A DNA stretch of 64,000 nucleotides from Bacteroidetes bacterium ADurb.Bin145 (lineage in GTDB: Bacteria; Bacteroidota; Bacteroidia; Bacteroidales; VadinHA17): positions 73,627-137,626 of the forward strand of contig MWDJ01000005.1 in the NCBI GenBank assembly GCA_002070505.1. Direction: 5' to 3'. The stretch's first letter is position 1. Each line of letters begins with the position of its first letter. Position numbers and translations under genes: made by a program. The notes beneath the pieces were generated by a model. The model had not been told where the DNA came from. It did not search any database and saw only the letters and a list, made by a program, of their open reading frames with translations. Positions 4,720 to 58,550 of this stretch are shown one piece after another.

Positions 4720-5695
4720 CAGGGAGTAACTCCCACATATCATCAAACCTGTAGGTGCTGCTTCTTCCGGTAAGAACAAAACCACGGGTAGAAGTATATA
4801 TCGATACTGTCCCTGTACGGCTTGTGCCTTCAAAAGAATGTAAACTCTCCCAGAGATCTGAATCAGGAAGATATTCCCAAGTGTCGGTACGGAGTGACCC
4901 GCTCTCACCACAGGTCAGGAAAACTCTGTTTCCGACTAAAACAGCCACTGCATTGGAACGGGCTATATTATAATCGTCATCGTAGCTTTCGTCAACATTC
5001 TTATTTGCAATTGCTCTCAGCTGAGTCCACTGTTGATTTGTGGGATCAAAGCGCCAGAAATCGGTAACATATGAACCATTATTAATACCGCATACAAGGT
5101 AAGCCTTGCCACCATTAACAAAAACTGTTGCGTTGTTACGCTTTGAACCTCCGGCAGATGTTGTCTGGATCCAGGTATCAAGGGCCGGATCATATTGCCA
5201 CATATCTTTCAGGAAGTTACCGTCATAGCCTGTGCCGATATATCCCTTACCGTTAAGGCCGAAGCCTACGGCACCAGAGCGTGCGCTTCCGCCAAAATCA
5301 GCTTTTTTCGTCCATGTATTTGTTGCAGGATCATATTCCCAGAAATCTTTAAGGTAATTGTTTCCGTCAAACCCGGTTCCAATATATCCTTTGTTGTTTA
5401 GGCTGAATGCTGTTGCAGTAGTCCTTGCAGCGCCCGGGAACTCGGCTTTCTGTGTCCAGAAATCCTGTTGAACATTATATTCCCACAGGTCCGACAGCCT
5501 GTTCTTACCATCAAATCCTCCAAAAACGTATCCTTTTTCACCTATGCTGAATGAGGCAGCATCACCTCTGGCCACTCCCTCAAAATCGGATCTTTTAACC
5601 CAGTCACCATATTCAACTTCCTCTTCTCCGCCGCAACCTGCCAATCCCAGAGCCATAGCAATATAAGATGCAATTAAAACTGTTTTACCCTTCAT
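4694..5695 (-). CDS. Kelch-repeat beta-propeller lipoprotein
   Basis: Lipoprotein signal MKGKTVLIASYIAMALGLAGC. Repeated Kelch units of about 48 aa (GYIGTGFDG...DFWEYDP..NTW). Confidence 0.7.
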   Translation of the reverse strand: MKGKTVLIASYIAMALGLAGCGGEEEVEYGDWVKRSDFEGVARGDAASFSIGEKGYVFGGFDGKNRLSDLWEYNVQQDFWTQKAEFPGAARTTATAFSLNNKGYIGTGFDGNNYLKDFWEYDPATNTWTKKADFGGSARSGAVGFGLNGKGYIGTGYDGNFLKDMWQYDPALDTWIQTTSAGGSKRNNATVFVNGGKAYLVCGINNGSYVTDFWRFDPTNQQWTQLRAIANKNVDESYDDDYNIARSNAVAVLVGNRVFLTCGESGSLRTDTWEYLPDSDLWESLHSFEGTSRTGTVSIYTSTRGFVLTGRSSTYRFDDMWELLPDEIYDENT

Positions 5696-46485: not shown

Positions 46486-48426
46486 TTATTTATACAAAAG
46501 TATCGATGGAGGCCCTGATTCAAAATTATAGGGCTTGAGTAATTCTTCACCTGAAAAACGAAGATAGTTGATTCTGGAATGTTCAGGCAGATTAGGGAAG
46601 AAACCGATACGTATCTGAAAAGTATTAAATAGCAGATTATTATTTCTAATCCTGATCCCAACTCCTATGCTTGACACGAAATCACCTTCACCTACATTCT
46701 GGTTAGTGCCGAAGAGAAACCCAAGATCCGCGTATGAAAAGAAAGCAAATCTGAAGCCGTAGAAGTTCAGAGGACTGAAGACAACTGTTTCGAGATTAAT
46801 TGAAAGCCTCTGATTTCCCATTGTCGAATCATTACTGAACCCGCTGAACCCATGTTCTTTTACAATTGACAGGAACTCATCAGAGTACCTGTCAAAACCT
46901 CTCGTATAATCTATCTTGACAAAATTCCGGATACGGTAATTACCAATATAATTAAGATTGGAGAAATAGCTTGTTCTTAACAGTAACAGACCCTGTTCAG
47001 TATGTCTGCCGTTAAAAAAAGTTGATAATCCTGCAGATAAATAAGAATATCCAATTCCGGGAATTGTATGGCCGGTAGACAAATTAATGCCTCCGTAAAT
47101 CCTTTCTTTAAACTCGTTGATTTCTTTCCCGGCTGTAACATTTATAAGCAGACCATATGGGATATCCTCAGTCTGTCCGTAACTGTATATCAGGTTTGTC
47201 TTATAAAATTTCTGTCTTGAGAACGCAGCTGAGACCAGGAACATTTTATATTTCTGCAGGTTATGGAATGAATCAGGAAGTATGAAAGGGTGAGAGAAGA
47301 CATTATTGTTCATATATCTGATACCGAATATCAGCCTTGAAACAGATTCACTGTTCAGAAGAAATGAACGTGAAAGCCAGTAATCCTGAAGATTGTATTT
47401 AAGTGGTTCCGGTACTGTCATTGTGTCGAGATCTTCGGAGGTGAACATCTGTCTTACAGATATTCCCCCGGCATATTTTGTTGTAGCACTTACAAATTTG
47501 CGGTTAATATTTATTCCGTATGTTTCTTCACCAAGGCCATCGAAATAGAAGAGGTTAAGGTCGACGAATGATTTTGCGATATTGTTGAAGTTATACTTCA
47601 GCCCGAATCCCGGAGAGTCCGGAAGATCTTCATTATAGATCATTTCGAGCCTTATTTCGGATCCGAGTCCCAGTACATTTTTATCGAAAAGGGCGAGGAA
47701 TCCTTTTTCTACCGAGCTAAAACTGGCAGTACCGCCCAAAGCAAAAACATCTCGGGTCAGTACAATAATATCAACTTCGTCGCCAGATACAGGAACAACC
47801 AGTATCCTTGAATCGTTTATAAAGGGCAGATCTCTTAGAATTCTTTCGTTATCACTAAGGATAAGAGGAGATATGGTATCACCTTCACTGAACAGCAGGT
47901 TTTTCTTTATAATATATTCATTTGTATTCAGGTGGGTTTTGTTGAGAATGTTCTCTAGCTTATTAGGATCGGATGAGAACGGGTTATCAATCTCAGAGCC
48001 AAACACTTCCAGCCTCCTGATCTCAATTTTCCGTATCTTTTTACCGGTGAAGGGGTTGAAGGTTATTTCACTTGATACACTCAACTGCTTTGTGGCAGAT
48101 TGTTTATCAGAAACAATTACAAAATCATATAGTTTCCTGGTTACCAGGTGTTTGTAAGCTTTGAACTTTAATGAGTCAAGAAAAATGGGTGAAGTTCCGG
48201 TTAATAGTATCTTAGGGGGGATAAGGATATCGGTCTGTATCGGTCTGGCCAGTGTCTGAGGTATGGGTACATATCCGGGAGTAATGGAATTACCTGAATG
48301 ATCGTTTATTAATGCAGGATCATTCGCAACCCTGTTCTGGCAGTTAAGCGGATAATAAACAAAAAGAAATGCCAGTATAAACAGAGGCCCGACAGATCTT
48401 TTGTATTTTAACCCAGAGGAGCACAT
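46486..48426 (-). CDS. Omp85/BamA-superfamily outer-membrane protein with a single POTRA-like domain
   Basis: Signal peptide present. POTRA-like segment IRKIEIRRLEVFG...IKKNLLFSEGDTISPLILSDNERILRDLPFINDSRILVVP..GDEVDIIVLTRDVF. The long remainder has an alternating beta-strand pattern (DKNVLGLGSEI...). The family call is tentative. Confidence 0.5.
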   Translation of the reverse strand: MCSSGLKYKRSVGPLFILAFLFVYYPLNCQNRVANDPALINDHSGNSITPGYVPIPQTLARPIQTDILIPPKILLTGTSPIFLDSLKFKAYKHLVTRKLYDFVIVSDKQSATKQLSVSSEITFNPFTGKKIRKIEIRRLEVFGSEIDNPFSSDPNKLENILNKTHLNTNEYIIKKNLLFSEGDTISPLILSDNERILRDLPFINDSRILVVPVSGDEVDIIVLTRDVFALGGTASFSSVEKGFLALFDKNVLGLGSEIRLEMIYNEDLPDSPGFGLKYNFNNIAKSFVDLNLFYFDGLGEETYGININRKFVSATTKYAGGISVRQMFTSEDLDTMTVPEPLKYNLQDYWLSRSFLLNSESVSRLIFGIRYMNNNVFSHPFILPDSFHNLQKYKMFLVSAAFSRQKFYKTNLIYSYGQTEDIPYGLLINVTAGKEINEFKERIYGGINLSTGHTIPGIGYSYLSAGLSTFFNGRHTEQGLLLLRTSYFSNLNYIGNYRIRNFVKIDYTRGFDRYSDEFLSIVKEHGFSGFSNDSTMGNQRLSINLETVVFSPLNFYGFRFAFFSYADLGFLFGTNQNVGEGDFVSSIGVGIRIRNNNLLFNTFQIRIGFFPNLPEHSRINYLRFSGEELLKPYNFESGPPSILLYK

Positions 48427-49136
48427 CAGGTTTCATGATCGTTTCTTTCAAGAACATCATCTGAATTGAACTGGAATCCGAGTCTTTTACCGGTTATTAC
48501 CCTGGAATGTTGTATTTTAGCTTCAGCCTGACCTACGGTGGCAATTTTCACAGTATCATAGGGTGGTACCAGAAGATCAAACTCAAGAGCATACTGAATA
48601 GCTGTTTCAATAATCACCTGCAATGATTCCCTGCTTATCTGCTCATTTCCATAGTTGGTAAACAGCATCCCCATCTGCCTTTTCCCTTCCACAAAATACT
48701 GATTCTCATGGTTTATAAAAATCCTGGCTATAAGATACCCAAGGTCATCGAGCCTTGAGTACTTGAAGGAGTCAAAGAGGAAATTATAGATATTTATTAT
48801 GCCTGAATATGCATTATACTTATTTTTCTGAATATAAGCTGTTTTCCATGCCGGGTGTTCTCTGTCAAACTGAAAGATGTTTGAATGCATACTGAAGAAA
48901 AGAACATCGCCGGCAACTTTCATCTGGGCGTCAAATGTACTGCGGTCAGTATATTCCAGTTTGATCCTTGGATCAATCCCGGCCAGACTGTTATTGACTT
49001 CTTTTGCCAAATTTTTAAGAATATCTTTTACAATAAGAAATGAATTAAGGGTGTTATCATATACTTTTTCCTTCAGTACAGATTTTTCTTTGAGTGTTGA
49101 GATTATCGTTTGCTTCTTCTCGTTAGGATCAGGCAT
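48426..49136 (-). CDS. hypothetical cytoplasmic protein, translationally coupled to the Omp85-like gene
   Basis: 236-aa ORF with no signal peptide. Its stop overlaps the next start as TGATG (shared nt 48426). I recognised no family. Confidence 0.5.
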   Translation of the reverse strand: MPDPNEKKQTIISTLKEKSVLKEKVYDNTLNSFLIVKDILKNLAKEVNNSLAGIDPRIKLEYTDRSTFDAQMKVAGDVLFFSMHSNIFQFDREHPAWKTAYIQKNKYNAYSGIINIYNFLFDSFKYSRLDDLGYLIARIFINHENQYFVEGKRQMGMLFTNYGNEQISRESLQVIIETAIQYALEFDLLVPPYDTVKIATVGQAEAKIQHSRVITGKRLGFQFNSDDVLERNDHET

Positions 49137-49231: not shown

Positions 49232-50707
49232 TCAATAAGACCTTGCAAAAAGGACTCTTCTTTTTGAAGGCTTGCCGGTGTAAATACATTTACCATCCTC
49301 CCTGGGAGAATCGAAGGGGATACAACCGATTGTAGCCTTTGTTTCATTCTTGATTTTCTCTTCTGTCTCTGTTGTCCCGTCCCAGTGAGCCATTACAAAA
49401 CCGCCGCGGTTCTCAATTATATCTACAAATTCTTCCCATTTATCTACACGATATGTATTTTGTTTGAGGAACTCTGAGGCCTTATTAAATATATTGTTCT
49501 GGATATCTTCGAGAAGGCCCGGAACATGATCATAAATGCTGGCCTGGGGAATAGTTTCCTTGATAAGGGTATCTCTCCTGGCAATTTCAACTGTATTATT
49601 CTCAAGATCACGAGGACCTATGGCGATTCTGACGGGTACACCTTTAAGTTCATAATCCGCAAATTTCCAGCCGGGTTTATTATTATCCCGGTCATCGTAT
49701 TTTACTGATATTCCTTTCTTCTCCAGTCCATCCTTAAGCCTTAAGGCAACTTTCGATATATCTTCAGCCTCATTACGGTTCTTATATATCGGGATAATAA
49801 CTACCTGTATCGGGGCCAGTTTAGGAGGTAATACCAGTCCGTGATTATCCGAGTGTGCCATTATCAGGGCTCCGATCATTCTTGTGGACAAACCCCACGA
49901 TGTTGCCCACACATAATCGAGCTTTCCTGTTTTGTCCGTAAATTGAACATCAAATGCTTTTGCAAAGTTCTGTCCGAGAAAATGACTGGTACCCGCCTGT
50001 AAAGCTTTGCCATCCTGCATCAGCGCTTCTATTGCATAAGTGTCGATAGCGCCGGCAAATCGCTCATTTTCAGATTTATAACCCCTAACAACAGGAAGTG
50101 CCATGAATTTTTCGGCAAATTCAGCATACACATTTATCATTCTTTCAGTCTCCTCAACGGCTTCTTCTCTCGTTGCATGTGCCGTATGACCTTCCTGCCA
50201 AAGGAATTCTGCTGTCCTGAGAAAAAGCCTGGTTCTCATTTCCCATCTCACCACATTGGCCCACTGATTGATAAGGATAGGCAGATCCCTGTAGGAATGT
50301 ATCCAGTTCTTATATGAGTTCCATATAATTGTTTCGGATGTGGGACGAACGACCAATTCCTCTTCAAGCTTCGCCTCAGGATCGACAATAACACCTTCCC
50401 CTTTTTCATCTTTCTTGAGCCGGTAATGGGTTACAACTGCACACTCTTTTGCAAATCCTTCTACGTGCTTAGCCTCTTTACTGAAGAATGACTTAGGGAT
50501 GAAAAGCGGAAAGTAAGCATTGACATGCCCGGTGGCTTTAAACATTTTATCAAGCTCCGCCTGAATTTTTTCCCAGATTGCATATCCGTAGGGTTTTATA
50601 ACCATGCAACCTCTTACAACCGAGTTCTCGGCCATATCTGCCTTGATAACCAGATCGTTATACCACTGTGCATAATTATCATCCCTGTTTGTTAAGAACT
50701 TAGCCAT
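49232..50707 (-). CDS. proS: proline--tRNA ligase (archaeal/eukaryote-like class IIa form)
   Basis: 491 aa. Motifs [32 protein letters not shown] and a C-terminal Zn-binding-like domain ending in ARSY. Confidence 0.9.
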
Positions 50708-50715
50708 GTTTTTGG

Positions 50716-50743
50716 TACACTATTTGAATTACACTATTTGAAT
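50716..50743. repeat. perfect tandem duplication of a 14-mer (tacactatttgaat x2) in the proS / Tyr-rich-gene divergent region
   Basis: Positions 50716-50729 and 50730-50743 are identical. Each copy contains a -7-like TATTTG. Confidence 0.85.
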
Positions 50744-50804
50744 TGAAAATTGATGGCGTAAAAATAGACAAAAAGTTATCATTTAAAAAAGCCGGAGGTT
50801 CATC

Positions 50805-51992
50805 ATGAAAGCAAAACTCTACATCTCAGCATTATCAGCAGTAATACTTTCAATAATTCCTGCGAAAGTCAGCTCATCTGATAAAAACTACCTAAGTAAT
50901 GGTGGAACCGACATTGTAATAAATAATTACTACGATAATTATGATTATTACTATACATCCCGGATCTACAGATTCCACAGATCATATACCGCTTTCGACT
51001 ACTACTCACCAGTATATACTGATGTTTACTGGTACACTTACAGACCTTTTACATGGGGGGTAAGTATATACGGAGGAGGCAGGCTTGGATTCGGGTTCGC
51101 GATCAATTATCCGGTATATTACTCTGGTTGGGGATATTCATGGTACGATTACGACTGGTACTATCCTTATTACGGGAATTCATGGTACTGGGGATATAAC
51201 CCATATTATTACAGCTGGTATTCTCCGGCAATAATCAATATAAATATAGGATACCCCTGGAGGTATAACCACTGGTGGAGGAATAATTACTGGGCGTGGA
51301 ACAGACACAATAACTGGTGGAGGAATGACTACAGGCCTTTCCACAATGACCGCTACAGATACTATGCTTCGGGATATTCATCCAGAGATTACTCTGGCAG
51401 AGACAGTAGATACGATTACAATCGCGATAACAGGGCAGGAAATTCCGTAAGATCCTCTGTCCCTGCCCAGCGGAATGAGGCTGCCAGGAAAAATGAAAGG
51501 GTAAACCCGGGTGCAGGAATGCAAAGGAATGGGGAAGTCAGGAATCAGACAGCCTCCAGAGAGAGAACAGCAATACAGAGTCAGACCGGCAGCAGCAGAG
51601 AAACAAGGTCAGAAACTACAGCCAGGAGACCGGTCACCAGCTCTTCGGTATCAAGGAGCCCCGCAGCATCACAGAACAGAAGCTCTTCGGTATCAAGGAG
51701 CCCGGCAGCATCACAGAGCAGAAGCTCATCGGCATCAAGGAGCCCGGCAGCATCACAGAGCAGAAGCTCATCGGCATCAAGGAGCCCGGTAGCATCACAG
51801 AACAGAACCTCATCGGCATCAAGGAGCCCTGTGGTTTCACAGAACCGTAGTTCGTCTGCTTCAAGAGGTCCGGCTATATCACAAAGCAGGAATTCTACTC
51901 CAGGTTCTGGTTCAAAGTCAGGGGGATCATCCTCCGGAACATCCTCTTCAAGATCCCGGGGTTCTTCATCCAGAGGCGGGAGCAGAAGATAG
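50805..51992 (+). CDS. secreted low-complexity protein: Tyr/Trp/Asn/Gly-rich core plus Ser/Arg-rich repeat tail
   Basis: Signal peptide (ISALSAVILSIIPAKVSS). Core examples: NNYYDNYDYYYTSRIYRFHRSY and WYDYDWYYPYYGNSWYWGYNPYYYSWYSP. The tail has six 14-aa repeats SSS[VA]SRSP[AV][AV]SQ[NS]R and ends in SRGGSRR. A GGAGG lies 7-11 nt upstream of the ATG. Confidence 0.6.
   Translation: MKAKLYISALSAVILSIIPAKVSSSDKNYLSNGGTDIVINNYYDNYDYYYTSRIYRFHRSYTAFDYYSPVYTDVYWYTYRPFTWGVSIYGGGRLGFGFAINYPVYYSGWGYSWYDYDWYYPYYGNSWYWGYNPYYYSWYSPAIININIGYPWRYNHWWRNNYWAWNRHNNWWRNDYRPFHNDRYRYYASGYSSRDYSGRDSRYDYNRDNRAGNSVRSSVPAQRNEAARKNERVNPGAGMQRNGEVRNQTASRERTAIQSQTGSSRETRSETTARRPVTSSSVSRSPAASQNRSSSVSRSPAASQSRSSSASRSPAASQSRSSSASRSPVASQNRTSSASRSPVVSQNRSSSASRGPAISQSRNSTPGSGSKSGGSSSGTSSSRSRGSSSRGGSRR
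51639..51890 (+). repeat. six in-frame 42-nt tandem repeats inside the preceding CDS
   Basis: The units start at 51639, 51681, 51723, 51765, 51807 and 51849. Adjacent central units are nearly identical at the DNA level. The last unit is degenerate. Confidence 0.85.
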
Positions 51993-52023
51993 TAAGAATA
52001 TTGGATATACTTTAAGGGACATG

Positions 52024-52054
52024 TAACAGCATGTCCTTTTTTTTATTACTTTTG
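52024..52054 (+). terminator. rho-independent terminator after the first Tyr-rich gene
   Basis: AAGGGACATG-taacag-CATGTCCTTT running into an 8-T tract (tttttttt), 32 nt after the stop. Confidence 0.75.
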
Positions 52055-52172
52055 ATAATTCATGAAAGCCCCATTATAAGAACTTAATTCAGTTATCTGT
52101 TAATTTAAACAAATTGATGTTTTTTGGTACAATATTTGTTCTTCAATATAGAAATAAATCAGGAAATCGAAC

Positions 52173-53522
52173 ATGAAAGCAATCAATTACATATCAGTCC
52201 TTGCCCTTCTGGCAACAATGTCTTGTACATCAGGACTTTACAAAGGGGTTGAATATGACGATCTCTACTTCCAGTCATCGGACAGGCAGGCGGTAGCAGC
52301 CCGTACACCGGCATCCCGGAGGATTGTGGAGAGCGATCTGAAATCGGCAGACTATTATGATAATATATATGCAGCTGATACGCTCATGTCGGAAGAATAT
52401 TATGATGCTGTCGATTACGATGATGCTGTTCAAAGCAAAGGTGGTGGAACAACGATATATAATAACTATTACGACAATTACTCATATGCTTCAAGGCTTA
52501 ACAGATTTTACGGAAATTACTTCTATCCTTACTGGAGAGATCCTTTCTACTCCAGCTGGTACTATCCGTCATTAAGCTTTAATTTTGGATATCCATACTT
52601 TTACAACTCGTATTACTACAATCCATTCTATTACGATCCTTTCTTCTATGATTACGGGTACTACGGCTATTATGGAAACTATTTCAGCCCTTACGGATAC
52701 TATCCATATTATTCGTACTATTCTCCCTACAGTTATTATGGAGGCTGGGGTTACTACCCGGGCGGATATTATAATGATAATTCAGTAGCATATGGTAGAC
52801 GTGAAAGACAAAGTAACTTATCTACAAGTTATAATAGAAATATGATGCCGACTTCAGCATCATCATCTCCAAGGAGAGAGGAAACCCTTTCAAAAGGTAC
52901 AACGTCAGGTGAGTCCGTGAGATCAACTGATATAAGAAGAAGTGATCTGCCATCTTCATCAACCAGGCAGAACACCAGAAGTTCATCCGTTGGTAATTCC
53001 GATCAGAATGATGTCAGAAATCAGCCCGCAACAACCGAAAGGAGAACATCCACAAGGAGCAGTACCTCTGTCAGCAAACCAGAATATAACAGCGTGAACA
53101 GGACATATACTCCGAGTTACAGCAACCCGAGGATGAGCACAAGGCCTTCCTATAATAACAGCCGTGTCAATTCCAATACGAGATCGAATTCAGGAGGGCA
53201 GATTAATGATAATACACCGGCCCGGACCAATTCCGGAAGAGGATCATCATCAATTTCAGCTGAACAAAGCAGATCGACATCAACTTACAGGAATTCAAAT
53301 AGTTATTCGGTTCCTTCAAGAGAAAGTGTACAACGCTCTTCCGGTTTCTCTTCAGGATCGGGCAGCGAAGGAAGATCATCATCTTCATTCAGCAGGAGTT
53401 CTTCGTCGGGCGGCGGCGGATATTCCTCAATGCCATCTTCCGGTAGCTCTTCAGGATCATCTGGTTCCTCCAGTTCATCAAGATCATCAGGCGGAGGATC
53501 ATCATCCGGTGGAAGGAGATAA
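52173..53522 (+). CDS. lipoprotein paralog of the Tyr-rich protein: Tyr/Phe/Gly/Pro-rich core plus Ser/Arg/Thr/Asn-rich tail
   Basis: Lipoprotein signal (VLALLATMSC). It shares the block IYNNYYDNYSYASRLNRFYGNY with the upstream protein (IVINNYYDNYDYYYTSRIYRFHRSY). The core includes PYFYNSYYYNPFYYDPFFYDYGYYGYYGNYFSPYGYYPYYSYY. The long S-rich tail ends in SSGGRR. Confidence 0.6.
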   Translation: MKAINYISVLALLATMSCTSGLYKGVEYDDLYFQSSDRQAVAARTPASRRIVESDLKSADYYDNIYAADTLMSEEYYDAVDYDDAVQSKGGGTTIYNNYYDNYSYASRLNRFYGNYFYPYWRDPFYSSWYYPSLSFNFGYPYFYNSYYYNPFYYDPFFYDYGYYGYYGNYFSPYGYYPYYSYYSPYSYYGGWGYYPGGYYNDNSVAYGRRERQSNLSTSYNRNMMPTSASSSPRREETLSKGTTSGESVRSTDIRRSDLPSSSTRQNTRSSSVGNSDQNDVRNQPATTERRTSTRSSTSVSKPEYNSVNRTYTPSYSNPRMSTRPSYNNSRVNSNTRSNSGGQINDNTPARTNSGRGSSSISAEQSRSTSTYRNSNSYSVPSRESVQRSSGFSSGSGSEGRSSSSFSRSSSSGGGGYSSMPSSGSSSGSSGSSSSSRSSGGGSSSGGRR

Positions 53523-53605
53523 GGAATTAATTTTCAATAAATCTAAATTAGCGGTTCATTCTTTTGATGGAGTGGTGGAATGCTTTTAACGAAAAGTTCA
53601 CAATT

Positions 53606-55105
53606 ATGAAAAAACTATGCTTAATAATATTGCTGGTATTGTCACTCACAATCTGGGCAGATGCCCAGACTGTTGACGATGCCTTGAGATACTCTCAGAT
53701 ATTCTATTCAGGGACATCCAGGTTCTCTTCAATGGGAGGCGCATTTACTGCTCTTGGAGGCGACTTGTCAACCCTTAGCCAGAATCCGGCAGGAATCGGA
53801 CTCTTCAGGTCTTCTGAAGTTTCAATTACACCCCAGCTCTTCCACATAAACACACTGGCAAATTTTAAGACAAAGAGCCGTGAGGATTATCTTTACGACT
53901 TTAATCTACCTCAGCTGGGATTTGTGGTTAACCTTATTAATAAAAATTCGGGAACAGGTCTGATGTCCCTGAATCTTGGATATTCATTCAATAAGACAAA
54001 TAATTATAATCAGACTATAGTAATAGAAGGGACCGGTGATCAGAGTTCACTAGCTGATTACTGGGCAGAATACAATAACGGATACATCCTTGATGATATG
54101 TCAAGTGATGCGTATATCGGATGGCGGGCTTTTGTGATTGACTCAGTTGCCGGTTATAACAACCAATGGGGTACTGTTTATTCAGGATACGGCAGCGAAG
54201 CTTCATTATATGGTCAGAACATCTCCCGTTACATCACTTATTCAGGCTTCAGCGGTGAGCATGCAATCTCTGTTGGGGGAAACTGGTCAGATAAGATCTA
54301 CTTCGGAGCAACATTGGGTATTAACCGGATCAGCTATAAAAGTCATTATGAGCATCTTGAAGCAACGAACAAAGTATTGCCAGACAGATACTCCGATGTC
54401 GCTGGTTTCACTGATTTCAGATATACTTTTGACTACAGCAACACCGGAACGGGATTCACTTTTAAAACAGGCATAATCTACAAACCTATCGAAACACTCA
54501 GACTCGGATTTGCATTTCATTCGCCAACAATCTACAGGATACATGAAGAGGCATACGATCATATAACATCTCATTTCGATGTCGGTGGAATAAAAGAATT
54601 CTCAAATAATTTTGAAGGCTTTGATTATGCTTTGACGACTCCTTTCAGGATAATTGTCGGAGGAGCTCTTCAAATCAAGAAGTTCGCTCTCCTGAGTGCT
54701 GAATATGAATTTGCTGATTATAAAACAGCAAGGTTCGCTAATGTGCGGGACGATGATTATGATTACAGCATCAAAAACCAGCAGATTAAAAGCAGCCTTC
54801 ATTCAGCGAACAATTTAAGGCTTGGCGCCGAATTCAGGCTGAATAAAATCTATCTCAGGGGCGGTTACAGTTATTATGGAAGAGCCTGGCAGGCAGGAGA
54901 ACTAAATGATTTTCTTGATTATAATGCAGTTTCCTGCGGTATAGGCTTCAGGGAAAAAAATATCGGCATCGATATCGGATATACTCATATGACAAATCCG
55001 ATGAATTATATTCTGTATGATACGTACAGCGAAACAGCTGCATCAGATATGACAATAAACAGGAATATTTTTAGTGTCACTTTCGGATATAAATTTGGTT
55101 ACTGA
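53606..55105 (+). CDS. outer-membrane beta-barrel protein, FadL/TodX/PorV-like
   Basis: Start set at the ATG at 53606 (MKKLCLIILLVLSLTIWADAQ). Hatch-type motif GTSRFSSMGGAFTALGGDLSTLSQNPAGIG. Alternating strands follow. The C-terminus FSVTFGYKFGY is typical of OM barrels. No terminator lies between it and the preceding gene. Confidence 0.6.
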   Translation: MKKLCLIILLVLSLTIWADAQTVDDALRYSQIFYSGTSRFSSMGGAFTALGGDLSTLSQNPAGIGLFRSSEVSITPQLFHINTLANFKTKSREDYLYDFNLPQLGFVVNLINKNSGTGLMSLNLGYSFNKTNNYNQTIVIEGTGDQSSLADYWAEYNNGYILDDMSSDAYIGWRAFVIDSVAGYNNQWGTVYSGYGSEASLYGQNISRYITYSGFSGEHAISVGGNWSDKIYFGATLGINRISYKSHYEHLEATNKVLPDRYSDVAGFTDFRYTFDYSNTGTGFTFKTGIIYKPIETLRLGFAFHSPTIYRIHEEAYDHITSHFDVGGIKEFSNNFEGFDYALTTPFRIIVGGALQIKKFALLSAEYEFADYKTARFANVRDDDYDYSIKNQQIKSSLHSANNLRLGAEFRLNKIYLRGGYSYYGRAWQAGELNDFLDYNAVSCGIGFREKNIGIDIGYTHMTNPMNYILYDTYSETAASDMTINRNIFSVTFGYKFGY

Positions 55106-55167
55106 TACTTTGTTTGACTTCCTACTCAGGGCTGGTTCATCCGAACCAGCCTTTTTTATATAAGATC

Positions 55168-55773
55168 TTATAAGAAAACTCTTGTCTCCGGTCCTGTATT
55201 GAACAGGATATCAATAATGCTGAGCTTCCGGGAACCTGGAATGTCCGCGTTGAACACCTGTTGATATTTTTTTGGGATGTAAGGAGAGGCTTTTTTAGGA
55301 TTGATACAATACCGGAGATCATTTGATTTACCTTCAACAGGCTGAAATCTATTAGTAAAAGTAACTCTTTTGTCCATCCTTATCATTCCGAGTATTGCCA
55401 TTAGCAGCTCCTGATTGAGGTCAAGGATATAAATGTGGTTTTTAAGGATGATTTTTTGAAGTGTTTCAAAATAGTAAAGAAAAAATGGTGATGAGCCGTA
55501 TGATGACATTATAGCTCCGAGATGGACCTGCTGCCATCTTTTTGAATAATCTATCCTGATATCCCTGATGGGAGTTTTATGGAGACTCCCGAGTAATACA
55601 GGCACACTAAGCATTTGAATACCGTTGGAAGACAGTATATAGCACCTGTTGCGGTAAGATTGTTTGAGGTAGTTCTCTTCGTTTTCAATAAGAACTTCAT
55701 CATATTCTGCTATTGCCGCGAAGTATTCGGAGGGAGGAAGATATGCAGTAGAAAGGTAAACTGTCGCAGGCAT
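55168..55773 (-). CDS. WbqC-family protein
   Basis: Motifs YLPPSEYFAAI and KQSYRNRCYILSSNGIQMLSVPV match my recollection of the WbqC-like family. It lies 12 nt downstream of larB. Confidence 0.65.
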   Translation of the reverse strand: MPATVYLSTAYLPPSEYFAAIAEYDEVLIENEENYLKQSYRNRCYILSSNGIQMLSVPVLLGSLHKTPIRDIRIDYSKRWQQVHLGAIMSSYGSSPFFLYYFETLQKIILKNHIYILDLNQELLMAILGMIRMDKRVTFTNRFQPVEGKSNDLRYCINPKKASPYIPKKYQQVFNADIPGSRKLSIIDILFNTGPETRVFL

Positions 55774-55785
55774 AAATTATTAGGA

Positions 55786-56535
55786 TTATTTCATCCTGTT
55801 GATCATGCTTGCTGAGAAACCTGCGCCGAAGCCATTATCGATATTAACAACAGTGACTCCTGCAGAGCAGCTTGTCAGCATAGCCAGCAGAGCCGAGATA
55901 CCTCCGAAATTGGCGCCATAGCCAACGCTCGTCGGCACAGCAATGACAGGCTTATCAACCAGACCGCTTACAACACTGGCAAGGGCTCCTTCCATACCTG
56001 CAATCACTACCACTACCTTGCTTTTTCTTATCTCCGGGAGCTTATCAACAAGCCTGTGAATCCCGGCTACACCTGCATCATAGATCCTTGTAACTTTATT
56101 CCCGAGGAGCTCTGCAGTTACTGCAGCTTCTTCCGCAACCGGAATATCTGAAGTTCCTGCTGTTATGACCGCAATTGTGCTTCCAGGGATAGTTGTTTTC
56201 TTCTTTTTTATAGAGATGATCCTTGCTTCTTTGTAGTAAACTGCTTCAGGGAATATTGATTTTATCTCATTAAACATATTCTCACTGGCCCTTGTGCCAA
56301 TTATATTATTTTCTTTCTTTATCATTACCCTGAATATTTCACGAACCTGTTCGGTCGTCTTGCCTGCGCAGTAAACTATTTCAGGATAACCGGTTCTCAT
56401 TTCACGGTGATGATCAATCCTGGCAAAGCCAAGGTCGGTATACGGAAAAGTTCTGAGCACTTCAAGTGCTTCAGCAACACTTTTACTGCCGTCCCTGACT
56501 TCTTTCAACAGTTTTTCAGTTTCTTTTTCTGTCAT
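55786..56535 (-). CDS. larB: nickel-pincer cofactor biosynthesis protein LarB (pyridinium-3,5-biscarboxylic acid mononucleotide synthase; PurE/AIR-carboxylase-like)
   Basis: 249 aa. Motifs ARIDHHREMRTGYPEIVYCAGKT, VITAGTSDIPVAEEA, AGMEGALASVV and VPTSVGYG. Confidence 0.8.
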   Translation of the reverse strand: MTEKETEKLLKEVRDGSKSVAEALEVLRTFPYTDLGFARIDHHREMRTGYPEIVYCAGKTTEQVREIFRVMIKKENNIIGTRASENMFNEIKSIFPEAVYYKEARIISIKKKKTTIPGSTIAVITAGTSDIPVAEEAAVTAELLGNKVTRIYDAGVAGIHRLVDKLPEIRKSKVVVVIAGMEGALASVVSGLVDKPVIAVPTSVGYGANFGGISALLAMLTSCSAGVTVVNIDNGFGAGFSASMINRMK

Positions 56536-56536
56536 T

Positions 56537-57334
56537 TTATTTCAATTCAGTATTCATACTACCTGTTCTGTAACCCTCAAGGTCCAAAGATATATATCTG
56601 AACCCGATTTTTTTTAAGCCCTCAATGATACTGTTTTTCTGCGGATCACATATGATCTTTTCAGAATAACCTGGGAGTAGCTCAATTCTGGCAATATCTG
56701 AATGTGCCCTGACCCGGGCTCCCGGATATCCCTTTTCCAAAAGCAAATCTTCTGCTTCTTCAACCATTTTTATTATGCCAGGGGTAATTTCCGTATCATA
56801 AGGGATTCTTGTCAGCAGACAGGCCATAGCCGGTTTATCCCATATTTTCAGACCTGCATTCAGGCAGAGCTCCCTTATTTCTTTCTTTGTCAATCCGGCT
56901 TCTGCAAGCGGGCTCCTTACTTCCATTTCTTTTAAAGCCCTCAGACCCGGCCTGTATTCGCGGGTATCATCAGAATTAGTACCGTCAATTATGTGTTTAA
57001 ATCCATTTTCTCTTGCAAATTCTACAAGATGACTGAATAGCAGTTTTTTGCAAAGATAACATCTGTTCTGCGGGTTGTGTCTTATCGCTTCCGGGAAGCT
57101 GATATCTATGATCTTGTGGTTGATACCATGAGCAGCTGCGAATTCAATCGCTTCGTTGATCTCACGTGCCGGCATATAGGGAGTCCGGATTGTTACAGCT
57201 ATGAACCTGATATTATTCAGCCTGCTTGTATGATAGACAAGGTAAGAGCTGTCAAGGCCACCGGAGAACGCAACCACAAAAGGACTCAAACCTGTCAGTA
57301 GGGTGTCAAGCCTGTCAGTCTTTTTCTGATCCAT
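56537..57334 (-). CDS. larE: LarE sulfur transferase (PP-loop ATP pyrophosphatase) of nickel-pincer cofactor synthesis
   Basis: PP-loop motif VVAFSGGLDSSY. Cys triad CYLC plus ACLLTRIPY. 265 aa. The stop lies 1 nt before the larB start. Confidence 0.8.
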   Translation of the reverse strand: MDQKKTDRLDTLLTGLSPFVVAFSGGLDSSYLVYHTSRLNNIRFIAVTIRTPYMPAREINEAIEFAAAHGINHKIIDISFPEAIRHNPQNRCYLCKKLLFSHLVEFARENGFKHIIDGTNSDDTREYRPGLRALKEMEVRSPLAEAGLTKKEIRELCLNAGLKIWDKPAMACLLTRIPYDTEITPGIIKMVEEAEDLLLEKGYPGARVRAHSDIARIELLPGYSEKIICDPQKNSIIEGLKKIGFRYISLDLEGYRTGSMNTELK

Positions 57335-57380
57335 AATACCTTAATTATTCATAGAAATTTTATCTGGTCAGAAAATAGTT

Positions 57381-58550
57381 CTACTTTCCGTTTATTGAAG
57401 CCATGATCCTGAAATAGACCTCCTTCACAGGAAGGCCCTTCTCAAGTGCTATCTTTCTGCATTCCTCATATTCAGGTTTGCACGATACTTCCTTGTCTTT
57501 ATAAAAAGAACGTTTAACAGTAATATTTCCGTATGGCGACTGAACAACTTCGAATTTCCTTACAAGAGTATCCTTCCTGAAGGAATAGGTTCTGACTCCC
57601 ACGGTTGTGGATTCATTGAAGATGATCTCCTTTATTTTATCTTCGTGACCGCGTTCACAAATGACATTCAGAACATTTCCCGGTCTGCCTTTCTTCATTA
57701 ATATATTTGTAATAAAAACATCAGAAGCTCCTGCTTTAAATAATTCATCTGAGATATGTTCGAAAAATTCCGGATTCATATCGTCGATATTGCACTGGAT
57801 CATCAGGGCATCGTGTCCTCCCTGCGGTTCTTCTGATTCAGCCAGAAAAACCCTCAGAAGGTTAGGAACGTCAGGATGTTCCTTCTGACCGACTCCGTAT
57901 GCAGTCTTTTCAATCCTGATAGCGGACGGCATTTTTGGCATTGTCACCAGGGTTGCAAGTATGGCTGCACCTGTAGGAGTGGTAGCTTCAAAATCAACAC
58001 CACCTTTTCTGACCGGTAAGCCCTTGATTATTTCAACAGTGGCAGGAGCAGGAACAGGCAGCTTTCCGTGTGCGCACTTGACAAATCCACTTCCAAGTTC
58101 AACTGTCGAAACCGTGACAGCTTCAACATTCAGTTTATTAAAGCATATAGCGGCACCAACGATATCAATTATTGAATCCACGGCTCCCACTTCATGAAAA
58201 TGGATCTCATCGGGGCTGACACCGTGGACCTCTGCTTCTGCTTCAGCAACAACTCTGAATATTTTCCGGCTCAGTGCTTTGGTCTTGAGGTCGAGCGCAG
58301 ATTCATTTATTATTTTCTCAATATCAGACAGATGCCTGTGAATATGTTCATGGCGGGTCTGTTTTACAGTGACTTTAGTGCCGGTTATCCCGTGCCGCTG
58401 GGCTTTCTCAACAACAAGTTCCCATCCTTTGAGATTCAGCTTATTCAATTCATCAACAAGATAGGTCTGGTCAATACCCAGATCAATCATTGCTCCGAGA
58501 TTCATATCCCCGCTGATCCCGCTAAAACAGTCGTAAAAAAGTAATTTCAT
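57381..58550 (-). CDS. larC: LarC nickel insertion protein (DUF111, CTP-dependent cyclometallase)
   Basis: The N-terminus LLFYDCFSGISGDMNLGAMIDLG is the DUF111/LarC signature. 389 aa. First gene of the larC-larE-larB cluster. Confidence 0.8.
   Translation of the reverse strand: MKLLFYDCFSGISGDMNLGAMIDLGIDQTYLVDELNKLNLKGWELVVEKAQRHGITGTKVTVKQTRHEHIHRHLSDIEKIINESALDLKTKALSRKIFRVVAEAEAEVHGVSPDEIHFHEVGAVDSIIDIVGAAICFNKLNVEAVTVSTVELGSGFVKCAHGKLPVPAPATVEIIKGLPVRKGGVDFEATTPTGAAILATLVTMPKMPSAIRIEKTAYGVGQKEHPDVPNLLRVFLAESEEPQGGHDALMIQCNIDDMNPEFFEHISDELFKAGASDVFITNILMKKGRPGNVLNVICERGHEDKIKEIIFNESTTVGVRTYSFRKDTLVRKFEVVQSPYGNITVKRSFYKDKEVSCKPEYEECRKIALEKGLPVKEVYFRIMASINGK

Follow-up and report, generated by a model that had tools for sequence, protein, structure and literature searches.

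A conserved gene pair and an accessory gene between proS and wbqC

The window analysed here, a 64-kb (64,000-nucleotide) stretch of contig MWDJ01000005.1 of Bacteroidetes bacterium ADurb.Bin145, carries three open reading frames (ORFs) on the same strand between proS and a WbqC-like gene. We call them gene A, gene B and the barrel gene (coordinates are collected in Table 1). A and B encode Tyr-rich proteins with basic, Ser-rich tails, and the barrel gene encodes a predicted outer-membrane beta-barrel of the FadL fold. As a whole, B and the barrel make up a conserved outer-membrane module, to which A is an accessory.

The pairing of B with the barrel is obligate. We fetched 92 loci, 87 through homologues of B or close homologues of the barrel and 5 through distant homologues of the barrel, and B stands directly upstream of the barrel in all 90 that retain the latter, down to a barrel identity of 32%. 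Among the 87, this adjacency is seen in 85, and the remaining two are cut before the barrel; across the 85, the order up646, up236, proS (minus strand), A where present, B, barrel (plus strand) and wbqC (minus strand) is nearly universal. The five distant barrel homologues (P0325, P0450, P0420, P0380 and P0340; 32-37% identity) each follow immediately upon a B-type ORF, and all five of these ORFs have a lipobox, DD(I/L)YY, DT(L/I/A), an aromatic core and a basic Ser/Asn/Arg tail. Four of them end in RR(R), and proS precedes B in four of the five loci. An earlier note on this DNA, made from its letters alone, had proposed a dedicated barrel, an idea that would have fallen had the gene trio shown no synteny in any related genome. 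The dedicated barrel is borne out by this synteny, while of the trio it is B and the barrel that recur in every locus retaining the barrel, A being found in about half.

Genes A and B are real despite their biased composition

In DNA of such biased composition, frames may stay open by chance, a caveat that the earlier note had itself raised, and A and B might thus not be genes at all. This idea can draw on further frames that are partly open (ORFs 51511-51792 and 53164-53589) and on the public annotation of one distant locus, L089, which chose small out-of-frame ORFs over B. We thus compared the window with the orthologous loci L038, L006, L001 and L009, calculating the ratio of non-synonymous to synonymous differences (pN/pS) in all frames. 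In the annotated frames this ratio was 0.09-0.3 for the N-terminal parts and aromatic cores, 0.2-0.6 for the low-complexity tails, 0.07-0.19 for a conserved motif in the B tail and 0.11-0.43 for the barrel. In the two alternative frames, which are also interrupted by stops, it was 0.5-2.9. For gene A the in-frame values were 0.12 in the core and 0.46 in the tail, against more than 1.2 out of frame. Indels among the orthologues keep the reading frame as well.

Purifying selection is thus restricted to the annotated frames, low-complexity tails included. Taken together with a signal peptide, a lipobox, motifs and a C-terminus that are kept over hundreds of species, this frame-specific selection means that A and B are real genes, and the barrel gene is equally genuine. 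The pN/pS results lead us to reject the chance-frame explanation, whose remaining probability is negligible.

It needs to be mentioned that public annotations truncate such genes or put spurious out-of-frame ORFs in their place. In L089 (2376-3929), the gene calls miss a 517-amino-acid (aa) B ORF and place three short ORFs in other frames there instead; a database copy of A (P0241) ends at 328 aa, inside the tandem repeat described below. A protein search returned no 100% match to gene B of the window. In L038, the closest relative with gene A, the N-terminal third of B (at about 5001-5400) lies outside the main ORF: the tblastn match begins at query residue 120 and the ORF begins at 5407, which points to a frameshift or a mistake of assembly in the metagenome-assembled genome (MAG) concerned.

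Gene B encodes a conserved lipoprotein predicted to be disordered

From its N-terminus onwards, B presents a lipobox with Cys18, EYDDLY, YYDNIYAADTL, the module shared with A (residues 96-126), a Tyr/Gly/Pro core (136-205), YGRRER, a basic Ser/Thr/Arg/Asn region, a conserved motif (301-335), a poly-Ser/Gly stretch and the C-terminal GGRR. The lipoprotein signal peptide that had been read from the sequence is well supported by the orthologues. It ends in a lipobox of the form ...L(G/S/A)SC(T/S)S, whose Cys18 is invariant in 22 of 22 sequences, conserved at 90% or more in a 112-sequence alignment and present in distant homologues. About 10 residues past this Cys, the alignments show a conserved EYDDLYY, and in YYDNIYAADTL, D69 and T70 are invariant and L71 nearly so. 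The conserved module YYDNYSY..RL.RFYGNYF.PYWRDPFY is followed by the core, which varies in length and consists of 53% aromatic residues (41% Tyr), 14% Gly and 10% Pro, so that the extreme aromatic low complexity ascribed to this segment is real.

The tail is basic and Ser-rich, as is that of A (33-43% Ser and 11-16% Arg in the two, with a net positive charge). In B alignments, RPEYN..NRTYTPSYSNPRMSTRPSYNNSR lies in the middle of it, followed by YSVPSR, the poly-Ser/Gly stretch and the terminal GRR. The most conserved linear motif of the tail keeps P303, Y305, R310, Y312, P314, Y316, P319, R320, R324, P325, Y327 and N328 invariant. The Arg-Arg ending to which the earlier note had drawn attention, there given as GG(S)RR, is a general trait, with RR or RRx at the end of all 79 complete orthologues.

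AlphaFold2, run with the 112-sequence alignment, gave B a mean local confidence (pLDDT) of 47 and no secondary structure other than the signal helix, and the prediction contained nothing fit for a fold search. B is thus, by this modelling, a conserved intrinsically disordered lipoprotein with linear motifs.

On which side of the outer membrane might B reside? Two or more acidic residues just behind the lipoprotein Cys serve as the criterion for surface exposure in Bacteroidota (PMC12578637), and none of the 79 B orthologues has any D or E at positions +1 to +6, so that by this criterion B lacks the export signal of surface lipoproteins. B therefore probably remains at the outer membrane's periplasmic side, anchored through Cys18. 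Being exported, it may also be modified: its D-T-L fits the general O-glycosylation sequon of Bacteroidota, which is reportedly D-(S/T)-(A/I/L/V/M/T). A DT[LIA] sequon is retained in five of six very distant B homologues or lineages, and judging from this sequence pattern B is probably O-glycosylated at the invariant D-T-L.

Neither A nor B matched any Pfam or NCBIfam model at E<=1, in agreement with the statement that they belong to no named family, and eleven diverse B proteins searched against Pfam gave no match either. No C-terminal domain (CTD) of type A or type B, as carried by cargo of the system for type IX secretion (T9SS), was found in A or B, whose C-termini consist of poly-Ser/Gly plus RR. 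Comparison of both proteins with curlin and Fap yielded no Pfam match and no predicted strands. In a scan of one genome per species, a relative of B was encoded in 213 species. The databases hold at least 219 relatives, all 'hypothetical' and all from Bacteroidales/Bacteroidota MAGs. The 80 genome matches listed for B are likewise MAGs throughout, their habitats being sludge, sediment, fen and the like, with no cultured carrier among them, and in the library that we searched we found no described family of Tyr-rich disordered Bacteroidota lipoproteins.

The barrel appears to be a distinct branch of the FadL superfamily

The barrel protein has a signal peptide cleaved before an invariant Q21, and its N-terminal 50 residues are very conserved, most of positions 21-70 being invariant. 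This region includes the NPA motif, in which N60 and P61 are invariant and A62 is conserved at 90% or more, in close homologues and in 75 distant ones; the C-terminus is aromatic (...FGYKFGY). The AlphaFold2 model (pLDDT 80) is a large beta-barrel, and the best 27 Foldseek matches in the PDB are all of the FadL fold (BamG, FadL, TodX, TbuX and CymD), with E values from 3.6e-16 to 2e-10 at 11-14% identity. At the top stands BtBamG (9hiv_F; E 3.6e-16, template modelling (TM) score 0.65), and P. aeruginosa FadL, TodX, PgBamG, TbuX, E. coli FadL and FjBamG are among the further matches. The model thus has the 14-stranded FadL fold with an N-terminal hatch, and the earlier assignment of the barrel to the FadL type, made from its NPA motif and aromatic C-terminus, agrees with the predicted structure.

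Assignment to a particular family is less straightforward. Neither the single sequence nor a close-family profile of the barrel matched the PDB, and a broad profile of 75 sequences matched TbuX (E 3.6e-6) and PorV (E 0.04) only. The top structural match made BamG orthology plausible, and we rejected it on sequence tests: there was no match to the NCBIfam BamG model NF053685 at E<=1, and no BamG chain in the PDB was matched by the close or the broad profile. Moreover, the barrel is only 11-12% identical to BamG although B. thetaiotaomicron and P. gingivalis belong to the same order, which argues against orthology, and it is about 90 residues longer. Among the PorV/PorQ models (NF033710, NF033709 and NF033711), the best score was 21.8 bits for PorV2, where the cut-off is 325. 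In Pfam, the barrel did not match Toluene_X (PF03349), and UPF0164 was found at 22.5 bits (cut-off 21.4). Some of the 75 representatives of the barrel family match the NCBIfam models weakly (31 the PorV/PorQ family model, 23 PorV2 and 9 BamG), and 24 of the 75 match Toluene_X, at best with 7e-17. We conclude from these sequence comparisons that the barrel forms a separate branch of the FadL superfamily, so far uncharacterised, and is orthologous to none of BamG, PorV and FadL.

This branch is large. More than 2,358 close matches were found, and an exhaustive profile search returned 2,844 clusters (50% identity) at E<=1e-30, of which the best 150 are nearly all full-length (about 480-520 aa). 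Clusters of distant homologues come from MAGs and are named only 'hypothetical' or 'outer membrane protein transport protein'. An upstream in-frame TTG/ATG start of the barrel gene (MEWWNAFNEKFTIM; TTG at 53564) was considered and rejected, as the DNA is conserved there but the peptide is not.

Transcription signals suggest units of A and of B with the barrel

Terminator-like hairpins with T-runs follow A and the barrel gene. The 83-nucleotide (nt) spacer between B and the barrel has no such hairpin, as the earlier note had stated, and the barrel is predicted to lie on the same transcript as B. The distance from the B stop to the barrel ATG is well maintained, with a median of 82 nt across 78 loci and 76-97 nt in 60 of them. 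Within the spacer lies a conserved, non-coding element of the general form GTTCATTCT-N4-5-RGAGTGGTGG; 57 of 86 loci have it, 42-75 nt upstream of the barrel ATG, and variants occur in addition. Its CATTCT can pair with RGARTG. Compensatory or wobble-to-Watson-Crick changes occur in L019, L035, L055 and L067/L069; this covariation is thin, the arms being mostly invariant. The element may be a site of RNA processing, RNA stability or translation control between B and the barrel. Rfam gave no match within 50600-55300.

A second kind of signal stands upstream of A and B. Of 42 loci, 19 have GGTA[CT]ANTATTTG at 62-84 nt (about 80 nt) upstream of A, while TTTGGTACAATATTTG precedes the B ATG by 30-48 nt in 49 of 84 loci and by 10-120 nt in 53 of 84, mostly by about 35-43 nt. 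The common motif can be written TTTGGTACA(A/C)TATTTG, and 72 of its 81 plus-strand matches in 937 kb of loci precede A or B. It ends in TTTG, like the -7 boxes of Bacteroidota, and is probably a promoter or operator of a common regulon. This distribution points to two units, A and B-barrel, with a common upstream signal. A scan for sigma-70 promoters remained at chance level (13 found, 12.8 expected).

Gene A is an accessory relative of B

A consists of a signal peptide (residues 1-24), the shared module (about 36-60), an aromatic core (61-150), a region rich in W, N, R and H (151-215) and a Ser/Arg tail (216-395) ending in GSRR. Its orthologues confirm the signal peptide that had been proposed, which is of type I, with a cleavage region ...KAQ in which Q23 is kept in at least 90%; such an ending fits the 'Q-rule' of Bacteroidetes. 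An N-terminal part of 110 residues (NNYYDDYDYYYSSRINRFHRSYAAFDYYSPVFTDTYWY..P.SWG.SIYG) is well conserved and is followed by the aromatic core (41% Y/W/F in the window, again as extreme as had been claimed), a hypervariable Asn/Gly/Ser/Arg tail and a terminal (G/S)RR.

BLASTP did not relate A to B (E 4.6). Profile-profile comparison of the full alignments gave a probability of 99.6%, a score that might have come from signal peptides and composition, and it was thus repeated on the mature regions. There, hhalign gave a score of 63 (E 5e-10) for a module of about 50 residues, compared with 21 for a reversed A profile and no more than 20 in 24 column permutations. The block that the earlier note had seen in both proteins is therefore homologous, beyond mere composition. 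The distant B proteins L088 and L089 bear an A-type continuation, YYDP(F/W)Y.D.YWYDP...ISIYAG (YYDPFYTDMYWYDP..ISIYAG), and the presence of A-like sequence in B proteins indicates that A is a duplicate of a B-type gene which would have lost the lipobox and the N-terminal acidic region. As A is present in only 42 of 84 loci, we regard it as an accessory.

The tail of A contains the sole tandem repeat of the two proteins, a young one (95% matches) with the unit SRSPAASQxRSSSA. At this site, A orthologues are Asn/Gly-rich (NNGNN...) or have other repeats, and from these differences at one position we conclude that the hypervariable tail expands and contracts.

B may dock on its barrel and form an envelope polymer

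What could a disordered lipoprotein do next to a FadL-like barrel? Short conserved motifs in disordered chains usually are binding sites. Three observations make us favour a complex of the barrel with its partner: the conserved motifs of the disordered B, the barrel as the only constant genomic partner, and the docking role of FadL-fold barrels in Bacteroidota. In this complex, B (and A where present) would dock on the cognate barrel, and the segments rich in Tyr and in Arg/Ser would give rise to a cohesive polymer of the envelope; we hold this tentatively, at somewhat less than an even chance, and largely by analogy. The barrel would act mainly as a membrane dock for its partner. B would bind it through the conserved tail after the Cys, through the YYDxYxY..SR(I/L)xRF module or through both, and A, which has neither the lipid anchor nor the N-terminal region of B and has kept the module, could enter this complex as well. 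The working part would then be the Tyr/Gly/Pro core with the Arg/Ser tail, a multivalent, self-associating polymer that lends the envelope a cohesive or adhesive layer, probably on its periplasmic side, and the basic tail could hold anionic partners.

There are precedents for a FadL-like barrel with a cognate partner in Bacteroidota. In BamG-BamH, the barrel docks a partner encoded by an adjacent gene or in an operon (PMC12611786), and a paralogous BamG2/BamH2 pair is encoded as an operon (PMC12578637). Like our barrel, these have a 14-strand FadL-fold barrel with a highly conserved N-terminal segment. In BamG-BamH, too, a barrel is paired with a lipoprotein, and the conserved N-terminal tail of BamH docks on BamG (PMC12578637, PMC12611786). 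BamH, however, is a surface lipoprotein that is folded and has an export signal, whereas B is disordered, lacks the signal and is not homologous to it. PorV and the PorP-like barrels are 14-stranded members of the FadL family that bind cargo; the genes sprB and sprF adjoin each other, and PorP is bound by the lipoprotein PorE (PMC9143113). PorU/PorZ dock on PorV/PorQ in this manner, type-B CTD proteins on PorP/SprF, and SprB too on a FadL-like barrel. PorP/SprF and PorV/PorQ of the T9SS thus resemble our case in that FadL-family barrels bind and anchor specific partners encoded by adjacent genes (PMC9143113), but a CTD of either type is lacking in A and B and there are no T9SS genes near the locus. 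What is known, then, is a FadL-like barrel with a cognate partner; the type of partner and the branch of the barrel are new. A further parallel comes from E. coli, where RcsF, an outer-membrane lipoprotein whose basic linker is disordered, associates with the beta-barrels OmpA/C/F and is threaded through them. There is no homology here, RcsF has a folded signalling domain, and it uses general porins rather than a dedicated co-transcribed barrel.

Several points weigh against the docking complex. Docking of B and of A on the barrel is argued by analogy rather than from direct evidence, and self-association of the Tyr/Arg-rich regions is read from their composition. As proS and wbqC are also syntenic, part of the B-barrel adjacency could be inherited gene order. 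The lack of the canonical export signal is no proof that B is periplasmic. Finally, FadL channels capable of transport are marked by an NPA motif within a highly conserved hatch, and its presence here would agree with a transporter.

This last point leads to an alternative in which the barrel genuinely imports hydrophobic or aromatic compounds in the manner of FadL, and B (with A) is an accessory that would capture, buffer or hand over the substrate or gate the channel. The barrel does share its fold, the N-terminal hatch with NPA and the aromatic C-terminus with FadL, TodX and TbuX. TbuX is also its sole significant sequence link to a solved structure, the family members that pass Toluene_X point the same way, and the half-aromatic segment (50%) of B might suit such a substrate. 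To our knowledge, though, characterised FadL channels need no lipoprotein partner. Differences from FadL, TodX and TbuX are that classical FadL genes have no obligate upstream disordered lipoprotein as our barrel does, and that the barrel itself stays below the Toluene_X threshold. FadL substrates, moreover, exit laterally into the membrane (the lateral opening is described in PMC12611786) and not into the periplasm, the predicted place of B. Import would leave the long basic Ser/Arg tail and its conserved motif with no obvious role, and catabolic genes for hydrophobic substrates are lacking nearby. An importer thus seems distinctly unlikely.

The other direction of transport would go with the surface matrix or coat that the earlier note had imagined. 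In such a system, unfolded A and B would reach the cell surface through or together with the barrel, and there anchored B would nucleate soluble A into a Tyr-rich coat, amyloid or condensate, as in CsgB/CsgA-CsgG or FapB/FapC-FapF. With those systems the locus shares an anchored and a soluble paralogue, here with a common module, and a dedicated outer-membrane protein. A and B are extremely aromatic and Gly/Asn/Ser-rich, and, being fully disordered, they could in principle thread a pore. Their Tyr/Arg 'sticker' composition and Ser/Arg repeats also recall FUS-type domains, resilin- or glutenin-like polymers and, with a supposedly phosphorylated Ser/Arg tail, Bacillus CotG/CotC, a likeness of composition only. 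Set against this, A is missing in about half of the genomes, which rules it out as the main structural subunit, B lacks the lipoprotein export signal, the barrel retains a hatch with NPA, and we know of no FadL-family member that secretes protein. The Pro/Gly-rich core has no predicted beta structure, which speaks against amyloid; curlin-type repeats, a Pfam match and a kinase are lacking, and the barrel is of a different family. Oxidative cross-linking of Tyr had been suggested too, and the anoxic habitats and lifestyle of the carriers would make peroxide-driven dityrosine unlikely. Overall, the surface-coat or amyloid idea is neither shown nor excluded by the data, and secretion of a matrix through the barrel is, in our opinion, unlikely.

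Could the barrel instead assist outer-membrane biogenesis as a BamG-like subunit? The A and B chains would then act like the EL3 loop of Bacteroidota BamA, a disordered loop rich in Tyr, Gly and Asn (PMC12578637), or as holdases for unfolded barrel proteins with many aromatic residues. BtBamG as the best structural match, with P. gingivalis and F. johnsoniae BamG close behind, is in keeping with this, and so are the very conserved N-terminus of the barrel, as reported for BamG (PMC12578637), and an Omp85-like gene two genes away on the other strand. But the failure of the barrel to match the NCBIfam model of BamG, and of its family profiles to match any BamG chain in the PDB, together with a B protein unrelated to BamH, makes such a role very improbable.

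Returning to the docking complex, its polymer part is compatible with the 'sticker' idea that had been put forward from composition. One may go further and take B and A for an unrecognised class of envelope proteins: anchored or docked Tyr/Arg 'sticker' polymers forming a layer of cohesive gel or condensate at the outer membrane, with a dedicated FadL-like barrel as its nucleus. The module would then be common in Bacteroidota, beside proS, and would have escaped notice through the failure of gene callers and domain databases to deal with it. If true, such a layer would be categorically new; the argument for it comes from composition, and we find it rather doubtful.

Whatever the mechanism, the FadL superfamily, from which Bacteroidota have drawn the docking barrels BamG, PorV, PorQ and PorP, gains a large uncharacterised branch with this locus (about 2,800 clusters at 50% identity). 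Nothing known resembles its obligate partner, a lipoprotein of 450 residues that has a 41%-Tyr core and short conserved motifs but no foldable domain. If the pairing is functional, it offers a tractable case of a conserved disordered protein in the bacterial envelope, and possibly a new structural or adhesive outer-membrane component of abundant uncultured anaerobic Bacteroidales.

Features and neighbouring genes of the locus

Table 1. Features of the locus, in window coordinates
Feature	Position	Strand	Remarks
up646 gene	46486-48426	-	646 aa; no Pfam family; weak BamA/Omp85-type match (TIGR03303, E 1.3e-5)
up236 gene	48426-49136	-	236 aa; no Pfam family, no family assignment
proS	49232-50707	-	flanks gene A, with a divergent spacer between
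Promoter-like motif TTTTGGTACACTATTTGAAT and second partial copy, upstream of A	50710-50743	+	in the divergent spacer between proS and gene A
Gene A	50805-51992	+	395-aa ORF
Shared module in A (INNYYDNYDYYYTSRIYRFH)	50919-50978	+	S52, R53, I54, R56 and F57 invariant in A orthologues
42-nt (14-aa) tandem repeat in A tail	51639-51829 (to 51889)	+	Tandem Repeats Finder (TRF): 4.5 copies, 95% matches; period a multiple of 3
Terminator-like hairpin and T-run after A	52014-52039	+	11-bp stem, then TTTTTTATTAC
Promoter-like motif TTTTGGTACAATATTTG upstream of B	52122-52138	+	found by locus comparison
Gene B	52173-53522	+	449-aa ORF
Shared module in B (YNNYYDNYSYASRLNRFYGNYFYPYWRDPFY)	52458-52550	+	F112, G114, Y116 and P119 invariant
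Most conserved linear motif of B tail (KPEYNSVNRTYTPSYSNPRMSTRPSYNNSRVNSNT)	53073-53177	+	pN/pS as in the text; recognisable in distant B homologues
Spacer element GTTCATTCT-N-GGAGTGGTGG	53554-53578	+	conserved, non-coding; CATTCT/GGAGTG 6-bp hairpin possible
Barrel gene	53606-55105	+	499 aa counted from ATG
Terminator-like hairpin and T-run after barrel	55128-55153	+	11-bp stem, 6 GC pairs
WbqC-like gene	55168-55773	-	converges on the barrel gene
LarB/LarE/LarC-type genes	55786-58550	-	AIR carboxylase-like, PP-loop and Ni-insertion protein; behind the WbqC-like gene

The rest of the 64-kb window contains no further Tyr-rich stretches and no further copy of the shared module. The LarB/LarE/LarC-type genes belong to the biosynthesis of the lactate-racemase cofactor. 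The up236 protein is 75-93% identical across nearly all fetched loci that cover its gene, and in the distant lineages L086 and L089 a gene of about 231 aa adjoins proS. The WbqC-like gene is convergent with the barrel gene in nearly all loci, including four of the five distant ones, and this constant neighbourhood might be functional.

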